64,000 bases of DNA, from NCBI GenBank assembly GCA_964016885.1, contig OZ024743.1:75826001-75890000 (forward strand), in the 5' to 3' direction. Positions 343 through 21,670 of the stretch are shown in pieces (the first letter of the stretch is position 1; the number at the start of each line of letters is the position of its first letter). The stretch is from Eledone cirrhosa. Taxonomy: Eukaryota. A model generated the notes under the pieces. The model searched no databases. It saw only the letters and a list, made by a program, of their open reading frames with translations, and had not been told where the DNA came from. Position numbers and translations under genes: made by a program.

Positions 343-420
343 ACTTTTCATATTCCCCAGTCTCCCCATTCCATTTTCAGTTGTTTGACTGGTACAAGGG
401 AGATAGATAGATAGATAGAT

Positions 421-910
421 ATGTTTCTTTATTAGCCACAGGGGCACAAAAGAAGGGGACAATAAAAACGTGTATAATGTTATCACAAATGGAATTTAAA
501 AATTAATCGATTTTCCCCAATAGGGGGAGACAGTTTATATGTAACACATACCCCCGAAAAATTGTGCAACCCTCGTCTCCAGGAGTACGAAGAGTTTGTA
601 CTCCTTTCCTCTCCTCCTCCTTTTCCTCAACCTACAGGCTGATATAGAGAGAAGGCCCATTCACTCGGGCCATTCTCGCCACTTTCACCCACCTTTCATA
701 AAACTTGCTGGGGTACAGCACCTCTCTCTCCATCCTGATTCTTCTTCCAAAGTGGTATTTGAAAAAAAGAATCAGTTGTTGGCAGGAGAGAAAGGTGTCT
801 GACCTCAGCCCTTTCAACCTTGTCCACCATACAACCTCTTTCGCCATAGCTATCACACAAAGGAAAACCGCCTCTCCTTCGCTTTTGAAGGAGGGTGGCG
901 GTTTGATCAT
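421..910 (-). mobile_element. 5'-truncated Tx1/L1-type non-LTR retrotransposon (ORF2 C-terminus + 3'UTR) inserted in (GATA)n
   Basis: ORF 632-910(-) (PPPSFKSEGEAVFLCVIAMAKEVVWWTRLKGL...ERWVKVARMARVNGP) aligns without gaps to the last ~90 aa of ORF2 at 9049-12468. The 3' end is ...TGTGGCTAATAAAGAAACAT, and GATA repeats flank both sides (401-420, 911 onward). Confidence 0.9.
632..910 (-). pseudogene. C-terminal fragment of a Tx1-type ORF2
   Basis: Direct similarity to the ORF2 C-terminus elsewhere in this window. The stop codon is at the equivalent position. Confidence 0.85.
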
Positions 911-1106
911 GATAGATAAATAGATAGATAGATAGATAGTAGATAGATAGTAGATAGATAGTTAGCTATAGATAGATAGATAGTAGATAGATAGAGAGAT
1001 AGATAGTAGATAGATAGATAGATAGATAGATAGTAGATAGATAGTAGATAGATAGATAGATAGATAGATAGTAGATAGATAGTAGATAGATAGTAGATAT
1101 ATATAT

Positions 1107-1137
<31 letters not shown>

Positions 1138-1529
1138 TAGATAGATAGTAGATAGATAGATAGACAGATAGATAGATAGAGAGTAGATAGATAGATAGAT
1201 AGTAGATAGATAGTAGATATATAGATAGTAGATAGATAGATAGTAGATATATATATATATAGATAGATAGATAGAGAGAGAGAGTGAGTGAGAGAGAGAG
1301 GTGGGAATGGAAAGAGATAGAAATTGAGAGAGAGGAAGAGAGGTAGAGGAGAGAGAGAGGGGGAGGAAGAGAGAGTGGGAGAGAGAGGAAGTGTGTACGT
1401 ATGTGTGTGTGTGTGCGTGTGTGTGTGTGTTTGTGTAAATGTATGTGTGTGAGTGAGTGTGTGTGTGTGTGTATGTGAGTGTGTATGTGTGTGTATGTGT
1501 GTGTGTGTGCTTGTGTGCGTGCGTGTGCT

Positions 1530-3691: not shown

Positions 3692-4254
3692 ACATTCTAA
3701 CACAAGAACTGCAGATCTGTAAAGACATGGACATCTAACACAAGAACTGCAGATCTGTAAAGACATGGACATCTAACACAAGAACTGCAGATCTGTAAAG
3801 ACACCATGGACATCTAACACAAGAACTGCAGATCTGTAAAGACACCATGGACATCTAATACAAGACCTGCAGATCTGTAAAGACATGGACATCTAACACA
3901 AGAACTGCAGATCTGTAAAGACACCATGGACATCTAACACAAGACCTGCAGATCTGTAAAGACATGGACATCTAACACAAGAACTGCAGATCTGTAAAGA
4001 CACCATGGACATCTAACACAAGAACTGCAGATCTGTAAAGACATGGACATCTAACACAAGAACTGCAGATATGTAAAGACATGGACATCTAATACAAGAA
4101 CTGCAGATCTGTAAAGACACCATGGACATCTAACACAAGAACTGCAGATCTGTAAAGACACCATGGGCATCTAACACAAGACCTGCAGATCTGTAAAGAC
4201 ACCATGGACATCTAACACAAGAACTGCAGATCTGTAAAGACAACATGGACATCT
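3692..4254. repeat. Minisatellite with 38- and 41-bp units (ATGGACATCTAACACAAGAACTGCAGATCTGTAAAGAC +/- ACC), about 14 copies
   Basis: ATGG starts at 3727, 3765 (+38) and 3806 (+41). Copies are near-identical. Confidence 0.95.
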
Positions 4255-8795: not shown

Positions 8796-9048
8796 GATTT
8801 CATTTATTGGCCACAAGGGCCGACATATAGGGGACAACACAATAGACAGGGACAGTGGGGGTTTACATAGAGATCGAGTAAGTATAAATAACAAAAAAAC
8901 AAAATAACAATAAAAATACAACAATGAAAGTTCCCCAATAAGAGGGATCACCACCCAGGGTTGACTCAAGCACCCCACCAGTCCTGAGCCACCCGACGCT
9001 CCTAGGGCACCCGGGAAGGGCACCCCTCTCCTTCTCGAATTCACCAGC

Positions 9049-12000
9049 CTACAGGCGCATGATCAGAGTAGGCCCACTCACGCGGGCCATTCTCGCCACA
9101 TTCACCCACCTTTCAGTAAATGTACTGGGGGGCAGCACTTCTCTCTCCACCCTCACCTTCCTTTCCAAGTGAAACTTGAAGAAGTTGATGAGGGATTGGC
9201 CGAAGAGAAAAGTGTCTGTCTTCAGTCCTTTCAACCTGGTCCACCATGCAACCTCTTTCGCTACTGCCACCAGGCAGAGGAAAATTGCCTGCCCTTCCTG
9301 ACCAAAAGAAGGCGGCGGGTCAATCTTCACTATGGACTCGGACGATAGCCGGATCCGTTCTACACGCGACAATAGCTGTTCGACATAACCCCACAAGTCA
9401 GCAATGCACGGACACTGGACGAGTGCGTGCAGAACGGTTTCGTCGCTCTGCGCGCATCTCGGGCAGGTTCGTCTGACAGCACTTCCGTGCCTGTAGAGTT
9501 TATCCCGAACCGGCAGCGCCCCCCGGTAGCACTGCCAAGCGAGGGATTTCTGGAAGTTATCCATCGTCCCCGGCTCGAAAGTCCTCCGGAACATACTGGT
9601 CAGTTCTACTTCGTTGACGCCCAGAGCCTCTCCTAGTACGTCATCGCACTTGCCCTCCACTAATCCCCTATAGAAATCTTGAGTGGAAGTTCCACTGACC
9701 GCATTGCCCACCTTGCAGAGTGCAGTGAGCGCCTGGCAACATTCCAGATGCCAGTCGCCCAGTCTCGGTCTCTTCTTGACCCAGGACTGCAGCTCAGTCA
9801 AAGAGATGAGCTGCGGAAAGGCCCGTCTAACAAACGGCGACCACACCTGTTCACCGTTTAGGCAAAATATCTGGAGATGTCGCAGCCTCAGCGCATGTCT
9901 GCGCATCATTAGCCACGGCATGCCCAGCCCTCCACGAAGAGGGTGCTGGCAGCAGATGGACCGCCTCACCAACGGGACCCGTCCCCTCCACAAAAATTTG
10001 AAAAGAAGCCGTTCCAAATTGGCGAGGCGTGGACGGGGGCAAGGCACGACGGTCAGGCGGTAGTAGATGACGGACGCGATGTACGCGTTCGCCACCTCCG
10101 CCCGTCCTTTCAGTGATAGCTTTCTCTCAGCCCATTTCTGGGTGAGGTTGGCTATCCTGCTCGTCACCTCGTCCCAATTCTTATCCACCTGGAGGTCTGG
10201 TCCGAACCAAACCCCGAGCAACTTTACCGGTCCGTCTGTCCAGCGCCCAACGACGCTGTTGGACGGCATGGACTTGCCTCTCCAGGTGCCGAGCTGCAAG
10301 CCCACCGACTTTTCCGGGTTAAGTTTTGCTCCCGTCAACCTTTCATATTCCTCCAAATGGGTGCGGATCACCTCGATTTCCGAGGTGTCCGACACCATCA
10401 CGGTGATGTCGTCCGCATAAGCGGACGCAGCCTTTCTGCGTCCCGGTTCGAGCGGGATGCCCTGCAACAACTCCAGCTTCCGCAGTAGAGGCTCAAGAGT
10501 CAATACGTACAGAAGTGAGGAGAGAGGGCACCCTTGACGGACCGATCGAGAGATCTGAAACGGTTCCGAGAGGTGGCCATTAACTTTGACCACCGAGCGG
10601 ATGCCGCTGTACATTGCAGCGATCCAGCTTCTGAAGACGGGGCCGAAGCCAGCCGCCTCGAGGACAGCCTCCAAGTACCGATGGTCGACCCTATCGAATG
10701 CTTTCGATTGATCTAAATTGATCAGAGCCCCACCGAAGCCAGGTTTGCACCCAACCCTCTCTATGATGTATCGCATGAGGTGGAGGTTGTCGTGTATGGA
10801 CCTGGTCAGGATTGCGCAAGTTTGCGCCTCCCCAACCAAATCTTTGACGACAAGCGCCAACCTTTTCGCTAACACCTTCGCCAAAATCTTAAACTCTGTG
10901 TTGAGCAGGGTTATGGGCCTGAAATTATCTAGTGTGTCCCTCTTGTTCTCGTCTTTCCTTATCAGCGTCACTACGCCACGGCTCACAGAACTGGGAATGC
11001 TCCCGTTCTGCTGCCAGTTGCAGTAGAGCGCTTCGAGGAGATCGGAGAACAAGTCTGGCATATTTACGTAAAGCTCGTAGGGCAGACCATCCAAACCGGG
11101 TGACTTGCGACTCGAGCAGCCGACAAGGGCGTCCTGAATTTCGACTGATGTTATCGGCTCTTCGCAGCGCTCAGCGTCGGCCGTCGAGAGGCGTGGCAAG
11201 CCGTCGAGGTAGGGACTGAAGTCCGCCGCCGTCTCCGACTCACCCATCCTCCCGAACAATCGAGCAAAGTGCTGGCGAAAAGCCTCACACATCTGCTTGG
11301 AATCGCTCAGTTCGTGTCCATCTCGATCCGTCAAAGACCGAATTGTGGTTTTATTTCCACGCTGCGTCTCTGCAAAGCGAGCCCATCGGGCAGCTTTGGT
11401 TCCCTCGTTCCTCAGAGCACGCGCCTTAGCTCTGACAATGCAACCTTCGTGTTTCGCATTGAAGAAATGGTCTAGTGCCATTCTCGCCGCTAGCACGTCT
11501 GTTGCAATGCCACTACAAATAGCCTCGTCTAACTTAGCTATCAGCCCCTCCTCCTTTCTATTTTTCTCTATTGCTACTTCTTTGCTAAATCCTATCGAGG
11601 TTGCTCTAATCTCTCTTTTGAGTGCCCCCCACCACCTGTTGTTGACAACCCCCCCTGTCAACTTTTGCTTAACTAAGTTGTTGACCCGGTCCCTGTAAGC
11701 TTTACGTGCCGGAAACGACATGTTTAGCTTCCAGTAGCTAGGTCCTAACCTACGTGTCTTATCTAGGTCGACCATACAGATCACAAGCTTGTGATCTGAA
11801 TAGGCAACCGTTTTAAAATGTGGACATCCTACACTATTTCTATCTCTTTTCCTAATGAAAATCCTATCTATGTACGATCTAGATGACCCTATGCGATTGG
11901 TCCAGGTCCATACTGGCGCATTAGGGAAATCTAGTCGGTACCTGTCAGACAGTTGAAACTGGCTGATCAGGTACTTGAGGCTTTTGCATCCCCCGCTCCT

Positions 12001-12468
12001 ATCAGATACTCCCACACAATCCCAGCGTGCTTCTAAGATGCCATTCCAATCCCCTATTAACAGTAAAGGGCGAGACGTAAGCAGAAAGTTTTCCAGGCGC
12101 CTAAAGAAGTCCGGCCGACCGGCCCCAGTAGGGGCGTAGACGGCCACCAGTCTAAAGGCACCACCTTCGCTATTGCTCACGTCCAGGACCACCAACTTTC
12201 CGTCAGGATCCCGGAAGATTGACCTTACCTCGAGATCCAGACATTTCCTAAACAGCACAGCCACTCCACCTCCCATTCCCGGCCGACTAACAGATGCAAA
12301 GATCTGATAATCGTCGAAAATCGGCGCCAGTGCGCGTGTGTCGGAAATTCTGGTCTCGCTGATGGCAATTACATCCATTCCTAGTGACCTGAGGTCGTTG
12401 AGCAAGTGACCTTGCTTCCAGGGCGACCCCAGGCCACGAACATTTAAACTTCCTACTCTTATGGCCAT
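9049..12468 (-). CDS. ORF2: APE endonuclease / reverse transcriptase / C-terminal zinc finger (1139 aa)
   Basis: APE motifs (SLNVRG, SETR, VYAP, GDWN, YIDRIF, SDH), RT motifs (SPGLDG, FRPITLLN, LDQSKAFD, QGCPLS, YADD) and CPRC-x8-H-x4-C. Confidence 0.97.
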   Translation of the reverse strand: MAIRVGSLNVRGLGSPWKQGHLLNDLRSLGMDVIAISETRISDTRALAPIFDDYQIFASVSRPGMGGGVAVLFRKCLDLEVRSIFRDPDGKLVVLDVSNSEGGAFRLVAVYAPTGAGRPDFFRRLENFLLTSRPLLLIGDWNGILEARWDCVGVSDRSGGCKSLKYLISQFQLSDRYRLDFPNAPVWTWTNRIGSSRSYIDRIFIRKRDRNSVGCPHFKTVAYSDHKLVICMVDLDKTRRLGPSYWKLNMSFPARKAYRDRVNNLVKQKLTGGVVNNRWWGALKREIRATSIGFSKEVAIEKNRKEEGLIAKLDEAICSGIATDVLAARMALDHFFNAKHEGCIVRAKARALRNEGTKAARWARFAETQRGNKTTIRSLTDRDGHELSDSKQMCEAFRQHFARLFGRMGESETAADFSPYLDGLPRLSTADAERCEEPITSVEIQDALVGCSSRKSPGLDGLPYELYVNMPDLFSDLLEALYCNWQQNGSIPSSVSRGVVTLIRKDENKRDTLDNFRPITLLNTEFKILAKVLAKRLALVVKDLVGEAQTCAILTRSIHDNLHLMRYIIERVGCKPGFGGALINLDQSKAFDRVDHRYLEAVLEAAGFGPVFRSWIAAMYSGIRSVVKVNGHLSEPFQISRSVRQGCPLSSLLYVLTLEPLLRKLELLQGIPLEPGRRKAASAYADDITVMVSDTSEIEVIRTHLEEYERLTGAKLNPEKSVGLQLGTWRGKSMPSNSVVGRWTDGPVKLLGVWFGPDLQVDKNWDEVTSRIANLTQKWAERKLSLKGRAEVANAYIASVIYYRLTVVPCPRPRLANLERLLFKFLWRGRVPLVRRSICCQHPLRGGLGMPWLMMRRHALRLRHLQIFCLNGEQVWSPFVRRAFPQLISLTELQSWVKKRPRLGDWHLECCQALTALCKVGNAVSGTSTQDFYRGLVEGKCDDVLGEALGVNEVELTSMFRRTFEPGTMDNFQKSLAWQCYRGALPVRDKLYRHGSAVRRTCPRCAQSDETVLHALVQCPCIADLWGYVEQLLSRVERIRLSSESIVKIDPPPSFGQEGQAIFLCLVAVAKEVAWWTRLKGLKTDTFLFGQSLINFFKFHLERKVRVEREVLPPSTFTERWVNVARMARVSGPTLIMRL

Positions 12469-12497
12469 GCTGGCAGGATGAATGGGAGAGGAAAGGT

Positions 12498-14366
12498 TTA
12501 CTTACCTTCCGGGGTCTTGTGAAGGTCGGGTGGTTCGACCTCCATGGTTTGTGGGGTTTCTTTTGGGAACCCCTTTAATAGTCTTGACGTGGGTTTTACG
12601 TTCGGGGTTCCCACATCCCGAGGAAAGCTCTTTCGAATTTCTTTGTATGAAGCGAGCGACATTCGCATCAGAAGCAAATTATCTGGTACGCGAAATGTGC
12701 TCGCTTCAAATGTTTCCCCGTCTTTTTCGATGTTTGTGCTTCGTGCTACATGGGCCATCAATTCCTTGTTGGCCCTTCTGGCAAGCACGAAGTTTTTAAT
12801 GTTTTGTTGCTCGGGTTTTATTTGTTCGTGTGATTGTGGTGGTGATAGCTTTGTTAGTGTTGTTTCTATTGTGTCTGCGTTTGTTGTGGGTGGGGTGTCT
12901 GTAGTTTCTGATGTTTGTGTGTCTATTTGTTCTTGTGTCTGTTTAGCTTGTTTGCGTTTGGGGGATTTTGGTGGTTGTGTTGGTGATGCTGTGGGGAAAA
13001 TGTTTGTGTGGGTGGTGTGTGTATTTTCTTTTGTGGGGGTGTTTGTGCTTTGTGGATTTCTTTTTTTTTTGTGTTTTGTTTTTTGTATTTTGGGGGACTT
13101 TGGTTTTCCCTCATCTTCACTGCTGGAGGATGAGGGGTCTGTGGCTGTGAGCGTGTTTGTGTCTGAGTGAGTGTTTATGTTCTTGTTCGTGTGTGTATTT
13201 TGGGGGGGAGGGGGAATGGGAGAGCTTTCCTCGTTTCCCCCCTGGGTGTGCAATTTTGGTGGTTCCATTGTTGACGGTGTTGCTGGTGGTCCTTGTCCCG
13301 GCGTCGCCAGCAGTGGAATCTTTCGACCCCTTGCGCTTTTCGGCAGTTGAGGGCAGAAGGCTCGCAAGTGTGTCGTTTCCCCACAAAGGAAACAATGCGG
13401 CCTTTTGCCCTCAGTCATTATATGCAACACCCTCCCGTTTTGGAGGCGGATGTGGTCCGGGATTGTTTTTACGTTTTCGGGTCTGATTTGGAGCAGTATC
13501 TCCAGATCAACCCCGGACCAGTCGTCCCTGGCAGTTCTCGTTGCCTCTACCGGGACTGTATCCGTTCCTTCCACGATTACGCAACCCAGGAGCCACCACA
13601 TATCAAGTCCTGGTGGAATCCTGGGAATGCGCACACGTGCTATTCGTTTTCCCATGTGGGAGGGGTACATTATGACCTTGCTGGTTTTGCAAGGGGTCAT
13701 TGAATGCTTCACAGCGAGGGCTTCAGACTTGAACAGCACCGAAACGGTGCCGTATTGCCTGCCCCTCTCTATGAAGTCTGTGTCCTCTCTGATGTATTTC
13801 AGTGCGGCTTCTATGTCAGCTTGGGCGATTATCGCTGCCCTCTTTGTCTCTACTGAGATGCATCTGAAATGCACCGTTCTTTTTTCCACTGCCTCAATGG
13901 CTTCTGCCGGGACAGTTAAGTTTGCCCAGGTCTGCTCTTGATTTATGATTTTCCAGGCCTGGGCCAACTTTTCCTCTCTGTTGGTTAAGTCGATGCTGTA
14001 GCATGGTCTCCTTTTAGCCGCTGCCACAGCAGCGAAGGTGTTCTTGTTGGTGTTGTCACTGTTGTTGTTCTTGTTGGTGTTGCTGCTGCTATTGCTGTTG
14101 TTGTTCTCCCCTGTGTCGTGGTTACCTTCTGTGCTGTTGGCCTTGTTGGTGCTGCTGCTGTCGCTACTATTACTCTCTGTGCTGTTCGGCTTGTTGGTGT
14201 TGGTGTTGTCGCTGTTACCACCTTCCGCGCCGCTCGGCCCGTTGGTGCTGGCACTGTCGCTGCTCACATTCGTGCTGGTGGCGCTCCTCGCCTCACCTCT
14301 CCTCTCAACGCTCAAGTCGCCGTTGCACGACAGCAGACCCGCCTCTAGGGGGCGTGGCTCCGCCAT
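12498..14366 (-). CDS. ORF1: gag-like nucleic-acid-binding protein with CCHC zinc knuckle (622 aa)
   Basis: CFLCGETTHLRAFC (C-x2-C-x4-H-x4-C) with low-complexity N/S/T- and P/K/T-rich flanks. It ends 29 nt upstream of ORF2. Confidence 0.92.
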   Translation of the reverse strand: MAEPRPLEAGLLSCNGDLSVERRGEARSATSTNVSSDSASTNGPSGAEGGNSDNTNTNKPNSTESNSSDSSSTNKANSTEGNHDTGENNNSNSSSNTNKNNNSDNTNKNTFAAVAAAKRRPCYSIDLTNREEKLAQAWKIINQEQTWANLTVPAEAIEAVEKRTVHFRCISVETKRAAIIAQADIEAALKYIREDTDFIERGRQYGTVSVLFKSEALAVKHSMTPCKTSKVIMYPSHMGKRIARVRIPRIPPGLDMWWLLGCVIVEGTDTVPVEATRTARDDWSGVDLEILLQIRPENVKTIPDHIRLQNGRVLHIMTEGKRPHCFLCGETTHLRAFCPQLPKSARGRKIPLLATPGQGPPATPSTMEPPKLHTQGGNEESSPIPPPPQNTHTNKNINTHSDTNTLTATDPSSSSSEDEGKPKSPKIQKTKHKKKRNPQSTNTPTKENTHTTHTNIFPTASPTQPPKSPKRKQAKQTQEQIDTQTSETTDTPPTTNADTIETTLTKLSPPQSHEQIKPEQQNIKNFVLARRANKELMAHVARSTNIEKDGETFEASTFRVPDNLLLMRMSLASYKEIRKSFPRDVGTPNVKPTSRLLKGFPKETPQTMEVEPPDLHKTPEGK

Positions 14367-14410
14367 GTTTTTTTGAGAAAAAAATTATTATTTTTTTCAA
14401 AATAAAGTTC

Positions 14411-14438
14411 AAATATTTGGGCCAAAAGGCCCAAATAT
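14411..14438. promoter_or_regulatory. Perfect 12-bp-stem hairpin in the element 5'UTR
   Basis: AATATTTGGGCC-AAAA-GGCCCAAATATT, identical in copy 2 (~20257-20284). Function unknown. Confidence 0.5.
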
Positions 14439-14849
14439 TATGAGTTATTCCTTCACAGGATACAAATTAATGTCTTATAATGCTTCAGCGGTACAAAAAA
14501 TAAACAATTCTCTACAATTAATCCTCAAAAATTGCTTACTCACGGAGCTTCAAAAAACGTACATCCACTTTCGTCAATAATAATAATAATGATTTCATTT
14601 ATTGGCCACAAGGGCCGACATATAGGGGACAACACAATAGACAGGGACAGTGGGGGTTTACATAGAGATCGAGTAAGTATAAATAACAAAAAAACAAAAA
14701 CAAAATAACAATAAAAATACAACAATGAAAGTTCCCCAATAAGAGGGATCACCACCCAGGGTTGACTCAAGCACCCCACCAGTCCTGAGTCACCCGACGC
14801 TCCTAGGGCACCCGGGAAGGGCACCCCTCTCCTTCTCGAATTCACCAGC

Positions 14850-17800
14850 CTACAGGCGCATGATCAGAGTAGGCCCACTCACGCGGGCCATTCTCGCCAC
14901 ATTCACCCACCTTTCAGTAAATGTACTGGGGGGCAGCACTTCTCTCTCCACCCTCACCTTCCTTTCCAAGTGAAACTTGAAGAAGTTGATGAGGGATTGG
15001 CCGAAGAGAAAAGTGTCTGTCTTCAGTCCTTTCAACCTGGTCCACCATGCAACCTCTTTCGCTACTGCCACCAGGCAGAGGAAAATTGCCTGCCCTTCCT
15101 GACCAAAAGAAGGCGGCGGGTCAATCTTCACTATGGACTCGGACGATAGCCGGATCCGTTCTACACGCGACAATAGCTGTTCGACATAACCCCACAAGTC
15201 AGCAATGCACGGACACTGGACGAGTGCGTGCAGAACGGTTTCGTCGCTCTGCGCGCATCTCGGGCAGGTTCGTCTGACAGCACTTCCGTGCCTGTAGAGT
15301 TTATCCCGAACCGGCAGCGCCCCCCGGTAGCACTGCCAAGCGAGGGATTTCTGGAAGTTATCCATCGTCCCCGGCTCGAAAGTCCTCCGGAACATACTGG
15401 TCAGTTCTACTTCGTTGACGCCCAGAGCCTCTCCTAGTACGTCATCGCACTTGCCCTCCACTAATCCTCTATAGAAATCTTGAGTGGAAGTTCCACTGAC
15501 CGCATTGCCCACCTTGCAGAGTGCAGTGAGCGCCTGGCAACATTCCAGATGCCAGTCGCCCAGTCTCGGTCTCTTCTTGACCCAGGACTGCAGCTCAGTC
15601 AAAGAGATGAGCTGCGGAAAGGCCCGTCTAACAAACGGCGACCACACCTGTTCACCGTTTAGGCAAAATATCTGGAGATGTCGCAGCCTCAGCGCATGTC
15701 TGCGCATCATTAGCCACGGCATGCCCAGCCCTCCACGAAGAGGGTGCTGGCAGCAGATGGACCGCCTCACCAACGGGACCCGTCCCCTCCACAAAAATTT
15801 GAAAAGGAGCCGTTCCAAATTGGCGAGGCGTGGACGGGGGCAAGGCACGACGGTCAGGCGGTAGTAGATGACGGACGCGATGTACGCGTTCGCCACCTCC
15901 GCCCGCCCTTTCAGTGATAGCTTTCTCTCAGCCCATTTCTGGGTGAGGTTGGCTATCCTGCTCGTCACCTCGTCCCAATTCTTATCCACCTGGAGGTCTG
16001 GTCCGAACCAAACCCCGAGCAACTTTACCGGTCCGTCTGTCCAGCGCCCAACGACGCTGTTGGACGGCATGGACTTGCCTCTCCAGGTGCCGAGCTGCAA
16101 GCCCACCGACTTTTCCGGGTTAAGTTTTGCTCCCGTCAACCTTTCATATTCCTCCAAATGGGTGCGGATCACCTCGATTTCCGAGGTGTCCGACACCATC
16201 ACGGTGATGTCGTCCGCATAAGCGGACGCAGCCTTTCTACGTCCCGGTTCGAGCGGGATGCCCTGCAACAACTCCAGCTTCCGCAGTAGAGGCTCAAGAG
16301 TCAATACGTACAGAAGTGAGGAGAGAGGGCACCCTTGACGGACCGATCGAGAGATCTGAAACGGTTCCGAGAGGTGGCCATTAACTTTGACCACCGAGCG
16401 GATGCCGCTGTACATTGCAGCGATCCAGCTTCTGAAGACGGGGCCGAAGCCAGCCGCCTCGAGGACAGCCTCCAAGTACCGATGGTCGACCCTATCGAAT
16501 GCTTTCGATTGATCTAAATTGATCAGAGCCCCACCGAAGCCAGGTTTGCACCCAACCCTCTCTATGATGTATCGCATGAGGTGGAGGTTGTCGTGTATGG
16601 ACCTGGTCGGGATTGCGCAAGTTTGCGCCTCCCCAACCAAATCTTTGACGACAAGCGCCAACCTTTTCGCTAACACCTTGGCCAAAATCTTAAACTCTGT
16701 GTTGAGCAGGGTTATGGGCCTGAAATTATCTAGTGTGTCCCTCTTGTTCTCGTCTTTCCTTATCAGCGTCACTACGCCACGGCTCACAGAACTGGGAATG
16801 CTCCCGTTCTGCTGCCAGTTGCAGTAGAGCGCTTCGAGGAGATCGGAGAACAAGTCTGGCATATTTACGTAAAGCTCGTAGGGCAGACCATCCAAACCGG
16901 GTGACTTGCGACTCGAGCAGCCGACAAGGGCGTCCTGAATTTCGGCTGATGTTATCGGCTCTTCGCAGCGCTCAGCGTCGGCCGTCGAGAGGCGTGGCAA
17001 GCCGTCGAGGTAGGGACTGAAGTCCGCCGCCGTCTCCGACTCACCCATCCTCCCGAACAATCGAGCAAAGTGCTGGCGAAAGGCCTCACACATCTGCTTG
17101 GAATCGCTCAGTTCGTGTCCATCTCGATCCGTCAAAGACCGAATTGTGGTTTTATTTCCACGCTGCGTCTCTGCAAAGCGAGCCCATCGGGCAGCTTTGC
17201 TTCCCTCGTTCCTCAGAGCACGCGCCTTAGCTCTGACAATGCAACCTTCGTGTTTCGCATTGAAGAAATGGTCTAGTGCCATTCTCGCCGCTAGCACGTC
17301 TGTTGCAATGCCACTACAAATAGCCTCGTCTAACTTAGCTATCAGCCCCTCCTCCTTTCTATTTTTCTCTATTGCTACTTCTTTGCTAAATCCTATCGAG
17401 GTTGCTCTAATCTCTCTTTTGAGTGCCCCCCACCACCTGTTGTTGACAACCCCCCCTGTCAACTTTTGCTTAACTAAGTTGTTGACCCGGTCCCTGTAAG
17501 CTTTACGTGCCGGAAACGACATGTTTAGCTTCCAGTAGCTGGGTCGTAACCTACGTGTCTTATCTAGGTCGACCATACAGATCACAAGCTTGTGATCTGA
17601 ATAGGCAACCGTTTTAAAATGTGGACATCCTACACTATTTCTATCTCTTTTCCTAATGAAAATCCTATCTATGTACGATCTAGATGACCCTATGCGATTG
17701 GTCCAGGTCCATACTGGCGCATTAGGGAAATCTAGTCGGTACCTGTCAGACAGTTGAAACTGGCTGATCAGGTACTTGAGGCTTTTGCACCCCCCGCTCC

Positions 17801-18269
17801 TATCAGATACTCCCACACAATCCCAGCGTGCTTCTAAGATGCCATTCCAATCCCCTATTAACAGTAAAGGGCGAGACGTAAGCAGAAAGTTTTCCAGGCG
17901 CCTAAAGAAGTCCGGCCGACCGGCCCCAGTAGGGGCGTAGACGGCCACCAGTCTAAAGGCACCACCTTCGCTATTGCTCACGTCCAGGACCACCAACTTT
18001 CCGTCAGGATCCCGGAAGATTGACCTTACCTCGAGATCCAGACATTTCCTAAACAGCACAGCCACTCCACCTCCCATTCCCGGCCGACTAACAGATGCAA
18101 AGATCTGATAATCGTCGAAAATCGGCGCCAGTGCGCGTGTGTCGGAAATTCTGGTCTCGCTGATGGCAATTACATCCATTCCTAGTGACCTGAGGTCGTT
18201 GAGCAAGTGACCTTGCTTCCAGGGCGACCCCAGGCCACGAACATTTAAACTTCCTACTCTTATGGCCAT
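14850..18269 (-). CDS. ORF2: APE endonuclease / reverse transcriptase / zinc finger (1139 aa)
   Basis: Same motifs as copy 1. Four residue differences are visible (LGPS/LRPS, EGTK/EGSK, TSVE/TSAE, AILT/AIPT). Confidence 0.97.
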   Translation of the reverse strand: MAIRVGSLNVRGLGSPWKQGHLLNDLRSLGMDVIAISETRISDTRALAPIFDDYQIFASVSRPGMGGGVAVLFRKCLDLEVRSIFRDPDGKLVVLDVSNSEGGAFRLVAVYAPTGAGRPDFFRRLENFLLTSRPLLLIGDWNGILEARWDCVGVSDRSGGCKSLKYLISQFQLSDRYRLDFPNAPVWTWTNRIGSSRSYIDRIFIRKRDRNSVGCPHFKTVAYSDHKLVICMVDLDKTRRLRPSYWKLNMSFPARKAYRDRVNNLVKQKLTGGVVNNRWWGALKREIRATSIGFSKEVAIEKNRKEEGLIAKLDEAICSGIATDVLAARMALDHFFNAKHEGCIVRAKARALRNEGSKAARWARFAETQRGNKTTIRSLTDRDGHELSDSKQMCEAFRQHFARLFGRMGESETAADFSPYLDGLPRLSTADAERCEEPITSAEIQDALVGCSSRKSPGLDGLPYELYVNMPDLFSDLLEALYCNWQQNGSIPSSVSRGVVTLIRKDENKRDTLDNFRPITLLNTEFKILAKVLAKRLALVVKDLVGEAQTCAIPTRSIHDNLHLMRYIIERVGCKPGFGGALINLDQSKAFDRVDHRYLEAVLEAAGFGPVFRSWIAAMYSGIRSVVKVNGHLSEPFQISRSVRQGCPLSSLLYVLTLEPLLRKLELLQGIPLEPGRRKAASAYADDITVMVSDTSEIEVIRTHLEEYERLTGAKLNPEKSVGLQLGTWRGKSMPSNSVVGRWTDGPVKLLGVWFGPDLQVDKNWDEVTSRIANLTQKWAERKLSLKGRAEVANAYIASVIYYRLTVVPCPRPRLANLERLLFKFLWRGRVPLVRRSICCQHPLRGGLGMPWLMMRRHALRLRHLQIFCLNGEQVWSPFVRRAFPQLISLTELQSWVKKRPRLGDWHLECCQALTALCKVGNAVSGTSTQDFYRGLVEGKCDDVLGEALGVNEVELTSMFRRTFEPGTMDNFQKSLAWQCYRGALPVRDKLYRHGSAVRRTCPRCAQSDETVLHALVQCPCIADLWGYVEQLLSRVERIRLSSESIVKIDPPPSFGQEGQAIFLCLVAVAKEVAWWTRLKGLKTDTFLFGQSLINFFKFHLERKVRVEREVLPPSTFTERWVNVARMARVSGPTLIMRL

Positions 18270-18298
18270 GCTGGCAGGATGAATGGGAGAGGAAAGGT

Positions 18299-20209
18299 TT
18301 ACTTACCTTCCGGGGTCTTGTGAAGGTCGGGTGGTTCGACCTCCATGGTTTGTGGGGTTTCTTTTGGGAACCCCTTTAATAGTCTTGACGTGGGTTTTAC
18401 GTTCGGGGTTCCCACATCCCGAGGAAAGCTCTTTCGAATTTCTTTGTATGAAGCGAGCGACATTCGCATCAGAAGCAAATTATCTGGTACGCGAAATGTG
18501 CTCGCTTCAAATGTTTCCCCGTCTTTTTCGATGTTTGTGCTTCGTGCTACATGGGCCATCAATTCCTTGTTGGCCCTTCTGGCAAGCACGAAGTTTTTAA
18601 TGTTTTGTTGCTCGGGTTTTATTTGTTCGTGTGATTGTGGTGGTGATAGCTTTGTTAGTGTTGTTTCTATTGTGTCTGCGTTTGTTGTGGGTGGGGTGTC
18701 TGTAGTTTCTGATGTTTGTGTGTCTATTTGTTCTTGTGTCTGTTTAGCTTGTTTGCGTTTGGGGGATTTTGGTGGTTGTGTTGGTGATGCTGTGGGGAAA
18801 ATGTTTGTGTGGGTGGTGTGTGTATTTTTTTTTGTGGGGGTGTTTGTGCTTTGTGGATTTCTTTTTTTTTTGTGTTTTGTTTTTTGTATTTTGGGGGACT
18901 TTGGTTTTCCCTCATCTTCACTGCTGGAGGATGAGGGGTCTGTGGCTGTGAGCGTGTTTGTGTCTGAGTGAGTGTTTATGTTCTTGTTCGTGTGTGTATT
19001 TTGGGGGGGAGGGGGAATGGGAGAGCTTTCCTCGTTTCCCCCCTGGGTGTGCAATTTTGGTGGTTCCATTGTTGACGGTGTTGCTGGTGGTCCTTGTCCC
19101 GGCGTCGCCAGCAGTGGAATCTTTCGACCCCTTGCGCTTTTCGGCAGTTGAGGGCAGAAGGCTCGCAAGTGTGTCGTTTCCCCACAAAGGAAACAATGCG
19201 GCCTTTTGCCCTCAGTCATTATATGCAACACCCTCCCGTTTTGGAGGCGGATGTGGTCCGGGATTGTTTTTACGTTTTCGGGTCTGATTTGGAGCAGTAT
19301 CTCCAGATCAACCCCGGACCAGTCGTCCCTGGCAGTTCTCGTTGCCTCTACCGGGACTGTATCCGTTCCTTCCACGATTACGCAACCCAGGAGCCACCAC
19401 ATATCAAGTCCTGGTGGAATCCTGGGAATGCGCACACGTGCTATTCGTTTTCCCATGTGGGAGGGGTACATTATGACCTTGCTGGTTTTGCAAGGGGTCA
19501 TTGAATGCTTCACAGCGAGGGCTTCAGACTTGAACAGCACCGAAACGGTGCCGTATTGCCTGCCCCTCTCTATGAAGTCTGTGTCCTCTCTGATGTATTT
19601 CAGTGCGGCTTCTATGTCAGCTTGGGCGATTATCGCTGCCCTCTTTGTCTCTACTGAGATGCATCTGAAATGCACCGTTCTTTTTTCCACTGCCTCAATG
19701 GCTTCTGCCGGGACAGTTAAGTTTGCCCAGGTCTGCTCTTGATTTATGATTTTCCAGGCCTGGGCCAACTTTTCCTCTCTGTTGGTTAAGTCGATGCTGT
19801 AGCATGGTCTCCTTTTAGCCGCTGCCACAGCAGCGAAAGTGTTCTTGTTGGTGTTGTCACTGTTGTTGTTCTTGTTGGTGTTGCTGCTGCTATTGCTGTT
19901 GTTGTTCTCCCCTGTGTCGTGGTTACCTTCTGTGCTGTTGGCCTTGTTGGTGCTGCTGCTGTCGCTACTATTACTCTCTGTGCTGTTCGTTTTGTTGGTG
20001 CTCTCGCTATTACCACCTTCTGCGCTGTTCGGCTTGTTGGTGTTGGTGTTGTCGCTGTTACCACCTTCCGCGCCGCTCGGCCCGTTGGTGCTGGCACTGT
20101 CGCTGCTCACATTCGTGCTGGTGGCGCTCCTCGCCTCACCTCTCCTCTCAACGCTCAAGTCGCCGTTGCACGACAGCAGACCCGCCTCTAGGGGGCGTGG
20201 CTCCGCCAT
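18299..20209 (-). CDS. ORF1: gag-like CCHC protein (about 636 aa from MAEPRP)
   Basis: Start set by homology with copy 1. It carries a 14-aa insertion, AEGGNSESTNKTNS. Confidence 0.9.
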   Translation of the reverse strand: MAEPRPLEAGLLSCNGDLSVERRGEARSATSTNVSSDSASTNGPSGAEGGNSDNTNTNKPNSAEGGNSESTNKTNSTESNSSDSSSTNKANSTEGNHDTGENNNSNSSSNTNKNNNSDNTNKNTFAAVAAAKRRPCYSIDLTNREEKLAQAWKIINQEQTWANLTVPAEAIEAVEKRTVHFRCISVETKRAAIIAQADIEAALKYIREDTDFIERGRQYGTVSVLFKSEALAVKHSMTPCKTSKVIMYPSHMGKRIARVRIPRIPPGLDMWWLLGCVIVEGTDTVPVEATRTARDDWSGVDLEILLQIRPENVKTIPDHIRLQNGRVLHIMTEGKRPHCFLCGETTHLRAFCPQLPKSARGRKIPLLATPGQGPPATPSTMEPPKLHTQGGNEESSPIPPPPQNTHTNKNINTHSDTNTLTATDPSSSSSEDEGKPKSPKIQKTKHKKKRNPQSTNTPTKKNTHTTHTNIFPTASPTQPPKSPKRKQAKQTQEQIDTQTSETTDTPPTTNADTIETTLTKLSPPQSHEQIKPEQQNIKNFVLARRANKELMAHVARSTNIEKDGETFEASTFRVPDNLLLMRMSLASYKEIRKSFPRDVGTPNVKPTSRLLKGFPKETPQTMEVEPPDLHKTPEGK

Positions 20210-20445
20210 GTTTTTTTGAGAAAAAAAATTATTATTTTTTTTCAAAATAAAGTTCAAATATTTGGGCCAAAAGGCCCAAATATTATGAGTTATTCCTTCA
20301 CAGGATACAAATTAATGTCTTATAATGCTTCAGCGGTACAAAAAAAAAAAAACAATTCTCTACAATTAATCCTCAAAAAATTGCTTACTCACGGAGCTTC
20401 AAAAAACGTACATCCACTTTCGTCAATAATAATAATAATAATAAT

Positions 20446-20571
20446 GATTTCTTTATTAACCACAAGAGTTTACATAAAGTAGACATTAAGGACAGTACAG
20501 GACAATACAGGACGGTACAAATGGACATTTCTGCGTGTAAAAGAAAACAGAGGATGTAATAAAAAAATAAC
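20446..20571 (-). mobile_element. 126-bp 3'-terminal remnant of a related, diverged element
   Basis: 3' end AACTCTTGTGGTTAATAAAGAAATC versus GGCCCTTGTGGCCAATAAATGAAATC in the full copies. Flanks are (AAT)7 and (AAT)5. Confidence 0.75.
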
Positions 20572-21029: not shown

Positions 21030-21670
21030 CTCGATGCAGAATACATTGCTCTGGAGAACGGCGAGGGAGACGCACTGGAACATCAGCCACTCCATCTCGC
21101 AGGTCTCACATCAGCAGGCAGCCGACTCCACTCCGACAGCAGTGAGTAGGGATGTGGTCCAGGGGCCAAGAACGCCACATGTCTCCATTGCAACAGGCTC
21201 GCACCTGCAGGTAGCCAACTCTGCTCTAATATTAGTGAGTAGGGATGTGGTCCAGGGGCCAAGAACGCCACATGTCTCCATTGCAACAGGCTCGCACCTG
21301 CAGGTAGCCAACTCTGCTCTAATATTAGTGAGTAGGGATGTGGTCCAGGCGCCAAGAACGCCACATGTCTCCATTGCAACAGGCTCGCACCTGCAGGTAG
21401 CCAACTCTGCTCTAATATTAGTGAGTAGGGATGTGGTCCAGGGGCCAAGAACGCCACATGTCTCCATTGCAACAGGCTCGCACCTGCAGGTAGCCAACTC
21501 TGCTCTAATATTAGTGAGTAGGGATGTGGTCCAGGGGCCAAGAACGCCACATGTCTCCATTGCAACAGGCTCTTTTACAAACCTATCTGATAGTGGTCGA
21601 TACTTGGACAGTTTTCCCTCTATGCTGAGCAGTATAGCATGGGCTGGTGTCCGAACGCACCAGGTTCCCA
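21030..21670 (-). mobile_element. 3' fragment of an RLE-encoding (CRE-like) non-LTR retrotransposon with internal tandem amplification
   Basis: Minus strand reads KLSKYRPL..EPVAMETCGVLGP and later MEWLMFQCVSLAVLQSNVFCI. These match CRE-type restriction-like endonuclease motifs (KY..L, PxAxETxGxxG, LxQRxSxAxxRGN). Confidence 0.65.
21142..21571. repeat. 93-bp tandem repeat, about 4.6 near-identical copies
   Basis: GTGAGTAGGGATG at 21142, 21235, 21328, 21421 and 21514. Confidence 0.95.

Follow-up and report, generated by a model that had tools for sequence, protein, structure and literature searches.

A retrotransposon copy in a TATC repeat of Eledone cirrhosa, its sister clade in ATT repeats and the choice of target in an L1/Tx1-type lineage

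Several families of APE-type non-LTR retrotransposons insert into microsatellites. In the portions of the literature drawn on here, these include Kibi, at (TC)n, and Koshi, at (TTC)n, in teleosts, and crocodilian Tx1 elements at (TTCC)n and (TTTC)n (PMC4494074; PMC3812793). The elements from Eledone cirrhosa described below resemble them in being APE-type and in having related families in different microsatellites; they differ in that the targets are ATT and TATC, that tri- and tetranucleotide clades occur in one genome and that the copies are very young. Other elements are transposon-specific, as described in the relevant part of PMC4494074 for Xenopus Tx1L, which lies in Tx1D (a non-autonomous piggyBac), and for crocodilian Tx1-Mar and Tx1-9_AMi. 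Subfamily H of the present lineage is comparable: its insertion site is fixed and lies within a non-autonomous element that is bordered by TTAA and has short inverted ends. H differs in being nested among microsatellite-targeting sisters, with 85% DNA identity, and in having kept their hairpin loop. TAA microsatellites are also the reported site of Dong elements (PMC3812793, in part). The ATT clade described here uses the same repeat but is a separate family, and its elements encode an APE. Dong, by contrast, is a restriction-like-endonuclease element. For octopus, an annotation of repeats names 13 L1-Tx1 families with recent activity, the part of that account covered here giving no targets (PMC13282606). 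A description of the present targets in this lineage was not found in the literature searched; they may already be listed in sources beyond that search, namely Repbase, journals behind subscription or the supplement of PMC13282606.

A role for RNA in priming has its precedent in the silkworm elements R1Bm and SART1Bm, in which pairing of the RNA with the target improves the accuracy of priming; what is reported, in the portion of the paper used, is an aid to accuracy and not retargeting (PMC7265360). Such pairing may likewise aid priming accuracy here, although both silkworm elements belong to the R1 clade. The earlier note on this DNA had invoked read-through annealing for R1 and SART alike: this holds for R1Bm, whereas SART1 ends in poly(A), and its annealing relies on a repeat-like motif located within the 3' UTR (PMC7265360, same portion).

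How APE-type retrotransposons switch targets is still argued. The endonuclease is usually held solely responsible, yet loop grafts have failed to transfer specificity (PMC1950540, in part). The lineage described here has three targets and intact young copies, and one pair of its subfamilies, G and H, shares a hairpin and not a site. It provides a natural set of parts for swaps of domains and flanks, in which the G/H pair makes retargeting by the tail directly testable. Were the RNA flank decisive, tools for gene insertion that are built on a retrotransposon could be directed by simple means; otherwise, ATT, TATC and a MITE repeat join the list of known targets.

The copy in the tetranucleotide repeat and its class

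The features of the window, by which we mean the whole stretch of 64,000 nucleotides that was analysed, are summarized in Table 1. The earlier note had described a 5'-truncated relative of neighbouring elements, with a homologous but diverged ORF2 C-terminus, GATA repeats on both sides and a 3' end that runs into ATCT without poly(A), and each of these points is borne out. The encoded end of ORF2 is 66% identical in protein to that of the two full-length elements of the window over the last 85 amino acids, and the DNA is 76% identical to theirs across 273 bp. Over aligned columns, and apart from the 26-bp deletion in the 3' UTR, it is 97.6% identical to L066, a full-length member of the subfamily to which it belongs. 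Its 5' junction shows about 2 bp of microhomology. Contigs from four runs, aligned to positions 335-935, did not cover the unique flank and showed no empty allele.

Table 1. Coordinates of the retrotransposon copies and flanking repeats in the window
Feature	Position	Strand	Remarks
(AGAT)5	401..420	.	ATCT when read along the element strand; forms the downstream side of the target site
5'-truncated copy of TATC-targeting subfamily G, L1/Tx1-type non-LTR retrotransposon	421..911	-	491 bp
3' UTR	421..631	-	26 bp shorter than in copy L066
Canonical polyadenylation hexamer	428..433	-	7 nt before the 3' junction; putative function
Last 92 codons of ORF2 and stop	632..910	-	Codons 635-910, stop 632-634
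Degenerate (GATA)n array	911..1283	.	97.5 units, 85% matches, 373 bp; upstream part of the target site
Full-length sister, subfamily A	8796..14575	-	Contains ORF1 and an ORF2 that encodes APE, RT and zf-RVT domains; flanked on either side by (ATT)n
Second full-length element, subfamily A	14591..20424	-	~99% identical to the first; head to tail via (ATT)5
Short 3' end of a third ATT-clade element, subfamily B	20446..20570	-	Stacked via (ATT)7

The elements have the architecture of APE-type non-LTR retrotransposons of the L1 group, with an ORF1 and an ORF2 that contains an N-terminal APE, a reverse transcriptase (RT) and a C-terminal zinc motif. PF03372, PF00078 and PF13966 are present in the window's full-length sister, the APE matches human L1 endonuclease entries, and full-length G copies have both ORF1 and ORF2. 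Variable 5' truncation, a fixed 3' end, short target duplications and the lack of an LTR are as in non-LTR elements generally. They are not canonical L1 elements, because the 3' poly(A) tail of mammalian L1 is absent: in 100 of 100 family ends, the longest run of A just past the end is 4. The polyadenylation hexamer lies at the same place in all subfamily references. We presume these to be Tx1 elements by analogy, the outgroups in our RT tree being unnamed sequences only. Between subfamilies, dN/dS is 0.11-0.31, indicating purifying selection in all subfamily pairs and long-lived coding lineages. Copies of subfamily A are also very young: its best 40 matches were all (40/40) 100% identical over 535 bp.

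PMC4494074, in the part used, recognizes a repeat preference where it is seen in more than 20% of flanks; the proportions here are far higher, at 33/40 for the ATT clade, 42/55 for the TATC clade and 34/34 for H. The insertions are not in (TC)n or (TTC)n, as they are for Kibi and Koshi, but in ATT and TATC; a (CT)n run immediately adjoining the element is confined to single copies here and there (e.g. L136 and L175). The feature is real.

Between positions 8796 and 20570 of the window, three ATT-clade ends (a B fragment, A and A) lie head to tail within a (TAC)n/(TAA)n tract. Elsewhere in the genome, ATT-clade ends often adjoin a SINE-like head or the end of a reverse-strand repeat, beside ATT runs (L032, L036, L048, L156, L170, L190, L219; L034, L037, L058, L132, L138, L139). 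Minisatellites with periods of 20, 41 and 93 bp occupy positions 1-332, 3696-4254 and 21141-21572 of the window, respectively, the first extending leftward beyond it. The last 37.6 kb of the window (26349-64000) is a 28-bp satellite of ~1,350 copies. Compared with eight element flanks, this satellite gave a single 18-bp match, to one of them; on inspection by eye, a portion of the satellite unit looks similar to the L196 flank.

Clades, motifs and the endonuclease

The earlier note had proposed that subfamilies be clustered genome-wide and set against their flanking motifs, and held that its idea would fall if no association appeared. An association does appear. Searches of the 3.0-Gb genome used A and G queries that contained no flank sequence. 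Among the best 30 DNA matches of G, ATCT was at the junction in 25 and within 8 nt of the element's own end in 29, with ATT repeats in none; among the best 30 of A, ATT was at the junction in all 30. A pattern for the conserved 3' end gave 27,258 matches genome-wide, against 0 for a control pattern, and the first 100 of these, chosen regardless of flank, were clustered on the 90 bases upstream of the pattern. Singleton clusters were put into clades by their best reference match, after the flanks had been seen; two ends without a reference match (L131 and L136) were placed from an earlier comparison. Of 40 ATT-clade ends, 33 adjoined ATT, seven neither motif and none ATCT; of 55 TATC-clade ends, 42 adjoined ATCT, 13 neither and none ATT. 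Cross-over to the other clade's motif was thus 0/95, and the remaining five ends belonged to a third group, H. The background rates of the two motifs are 0.64% and 0.58% (17,690 positions, at loci chosen regardless of the LINE). Fisher's P for the association of clade with motif is 5e-22, a value that overstates the case because the sample includes stacked, non-independent copies and all 100 ends lie within 22 Mb of one contig (C1). That subfamily and motif are associated beyond chance is not in doubt.

The upstream flanks were read in the same manner. Every readable full-length A copy (19/19, of 20 fetched) begins after its own motif, as do all full-length copies in the sample of 100, whether of the ATT clade (14/14) or the TATC clade (7/7). 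Truncated TATC-clade copies, in which a 5' leader cannot be present, do so in 24 of 45 cases, as does the copy at 421-911, and none of 87 copies begins after the motif of the other clade; four copies whose reference is itself truncated and two that had no reference are left out of these counts. In the ATT clade, an ATT run is found upstream in only 4/21 truncated or disrupted copies, as against 14/14 that are full-length. Such a deficit would be expected if leaders were carried or tails added, and also from later rearrangement or from insertion at the edge of a run. Full-length copies of subfamily J (L171, L175, L177 and L180) begin with a common degenerate TATC-like leader, which is possibly a fossil of the founder's flank.

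The motif follows both the APE and the RT trees. G, J, H and unlabelled relatives form a single TATC branch, with support of 96/96 in the RT tree and an SH-aLRT of 96 in the APE tree, the latter being a quick tree. The comparison of APE loops that the earlier note had called for shows that where most A and B copies have NRIGSSRSY, subfamilies G, J and H have NRSGTSRSY; the ATT and TATC clades are told apart by eleven positions of the APE. In alignment, this minor-groove hairpin corresponds to the grafted loop of PDB 2V0S. In the part of PMC1950540 used, altering that hairpin loop alters nicking, a graft of the Tx1L loop failed to transfer the specificity of Tx1L, and RNA-DNA pairing is named as a possible added factor in specificity. 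The first alternative offered by the earlier note, a diversified endonuclease specificity, fits these data. Since the correlation rests on one split between clades, effects of the 3' UTR, the tail and the endonuclease are inseparable within it. Nor does the hairpin alone explain targeting, because H has the hairpin of G and yet a wholly different site.

The copy at 421-911 belongs to a subfamily that sits at TATC sites and has a sister clade at ATT. With a probability of about 0.6, we consider that the difference arose through divergence of the APE in the motifs it nicks, and that read-through RNA may sharpen priming. ORF2p would nick the AGAT or the AAT strand, and reverse transcription would then start from the element's own 3' end, by target-primed reverse transcription. 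The usual spacing of a poly(A) signal is 10-30 nt; with the signal so close to the element end (7 nt), transcripts would carry a few target units. By analogy with what is reported for R1Bm, base pairing between these units and the nicked strand probably sets where reverse transcription begins; this would sharpen the choice of site without making it. A new copy would lie next to a site fit for another insertion, and head-to-tail stacks would form in this way. Subfamily H is likely to reflect another change of this sort, in which the new target was a site with TCTAT inside the repeat of a MITE.

Subfamily H and the part played by RNA

H, seen at loci L135, L147, L152, L158, L220 and L231-L280, has 334 exact matches in the genome and is ~85% identical to G in DNA. 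It is nested within the TATC clade. Its hairpin is that of G, but a further 40 positions of the APE distinguish the two subfamilies, among them positions in the loop that follows the YAP motif. At 34 of 34 loci, the 3' end lies at one base of a 72-bp repeat; at 24 of 24, the 5' end lies at a fixed base, and these copies are full-length. The target contains TCTAT, a core that is also present in G targets. The host resembles piggyBac-like MITEs: it is ~230 bp long and present in many copies, lacks an ORF, and has TTAA at both ends together with short terminal inverted repeats; both ends are visible in most of 29 hosts, and a first look gave 4,178 candidates. Hosts (loci L282-L310 and L314-L341) are mostly monomeric in the 72-bp repeat (28/29). 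H elements are 98% alike and their host arms 82%, with a correlation of 0.03 (136 pairs, from 17/30 loci, the 13 without a visible host arm being left out). The two identities are so different, and so uncorrelated, that H insertions must be regarded as independent, the H-MITE composite not having moved as one piece.

It is conceivable that the endonuclease nicks TAT-containing DNA only loosely and that target sequence borne by the transcript (3' read-through and perhaps a 5' leader) picks the nick that is primed, so that a copy which lands in a new repeat founds a new lineage. Much of what is seen in H could be read this way: a single base of a 72-bp repeat is used under a hairpin unchanged from G, and copies of the G clade occasionally lie in other minisatellites at a TCTAT-like site (L155 and L179). 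The lack of poly(A) and the short distance from signal to junction point in the same direction, as does the upstream motif, which is nearly constant in full-length copies and rare in truncated ATT-clade ones. Evidence from the repeat units can also be adduced. Across loci, units beside H are 92-95% alike, compared with 82% for host arms and 78% for empty monomers (five tandem duplicates being left out); in differences per 46 bp, units beside H stand at 1.3-1.9, those next to the right arm at 3.3 and empty monomers at 7.0. In L263/L241, a canonical unit lies upstream and old units downstream. However, among 20 arrays found by the unit alone, H was visible at two, whereas 12 could be followed to both ends and were free of H, so that young units need not travel with the element and are not proof of carriage by RNA. 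At several H loci (L257, L273 and L220), local variants of the unit are shared along the array, which also speaks against choice by RNA, as do the 40 APE differences between H and G.

The same H-free arrays weaken a further idea, that H itself builds the 72-bp arrays, which had been suggested by the monomeric hosts and the young units beside H; we do not adopt it. In some MITE copies, old arms enclose 0.3 to >2 kb of 72-bp units that look young, without a LINE. For H, a target duplication of 65 bp would suit L278, whereas L261 and L277 do not agree with it.

Copies outside H also tell against RNA-guided choice. None of five truncated copies at clean non-repeat sites has added units. L137, inside the reading frame of another element, has a single TATCT and a 7-bp duplication with no added unit; target duplications at other non-repeat sites are 19 bp (L163), 8 bp (L172), 16 bp (L197) and 11 bp (L215). 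Flank length shows no inheritance, which counts weakly against transmission by RNA: over 48 G copies, a poorly resolved tree requires 16 changes, against 16.1 when shuffled (L005, L019, L028, L029, L179 and copies <500 bp having been dropped). The second alternative of the earlier note, in which the repeat at the 3' end of the RNA is a reprogrammable selector of targets, accordingly finds no direct support in these sites or in flank lengths; the indirect observations fall on both sides, and we regard choice by RNA as unlikely. A stronger form of it, which is more doubtful still, is that target choice is inherited through the RNA: the endonuclease would need only a TAT-containing core and the transcribed flank of a master copy would set the site, and H would have been founded in this way, its hairpin unchanged, when a TATC-clade copy inserted into a MITE repeat. 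Exchange of the flank would then retarget the element.

Repeats as targets, tails or vehicles

L2 and CR1 elements have 3' tails made by template slippage. The repeats could similarly be written by the elements themselves, with little target preference, and those on two sides could result from stacking in earlier tails. Among 48 G copies, the perfect run on the 3' side varies from 3 to 81 bp; many upstream repeats lie directly behind the 3' end of an earlier copy, and the upstream motif is absent in some copies (L063, L069, L079 and L080), all of which would suit this account. It does not suit the copy at 421-911, which is truncated and starts in a 373-bp degenerate array, nor the young A copies, on both sides of which degenerate arrays continue, nor H, which lies at its site without any simple repeat. 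Because truncated copies start in the repeat and non-repeat sites gain no units, the repeat is mainly a target and not an added tail, and we think self-written tails very improbable as the source of the pattern. A short core suffices as target, since the perfect run is below 13 bp in 26/48 G copies. Among the loci collected, empty paralogous sites were not found for the 22 copies examined.

Least credible is a spread that took place partly at the level of DNA, mainly of full-length A and H, whether through recombination of the repeats on either side or by transport along with the MITE, with junctions kept in the absence of targeting: the full-length A and H copies with their fixed 5' junctions, and tandem runs of H, are what it would predict, but it is opposed by the independence of H elements from their host arms, by dN/dS values (0.21-0.28 for H against G, 0.42-0.54 among H copies), by an H piece that starts mid-element behind an array (L338), and by truncated G copies with varied breakpoints, which it does not explain.

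Some features of H may be recorded in their own right. Its 5' end opens with a 12-bp perfect palindrome, and the tandem runs comprise up to six copies. The H copies L158 and L263 lie in opposite orientation, 50 kb from each other. They have one unique upstream flank in common, together with a single unit of 65 bp, and differ in their downstream hosts; the shared flank would reflect recombination or 5' transduction. On the three largest contigs (C1-C3), H matches cluster near the ends (on C1, at 0.6-31 Mb and 431-434 Mb), and empty MITE hosts occur mid-contig too.
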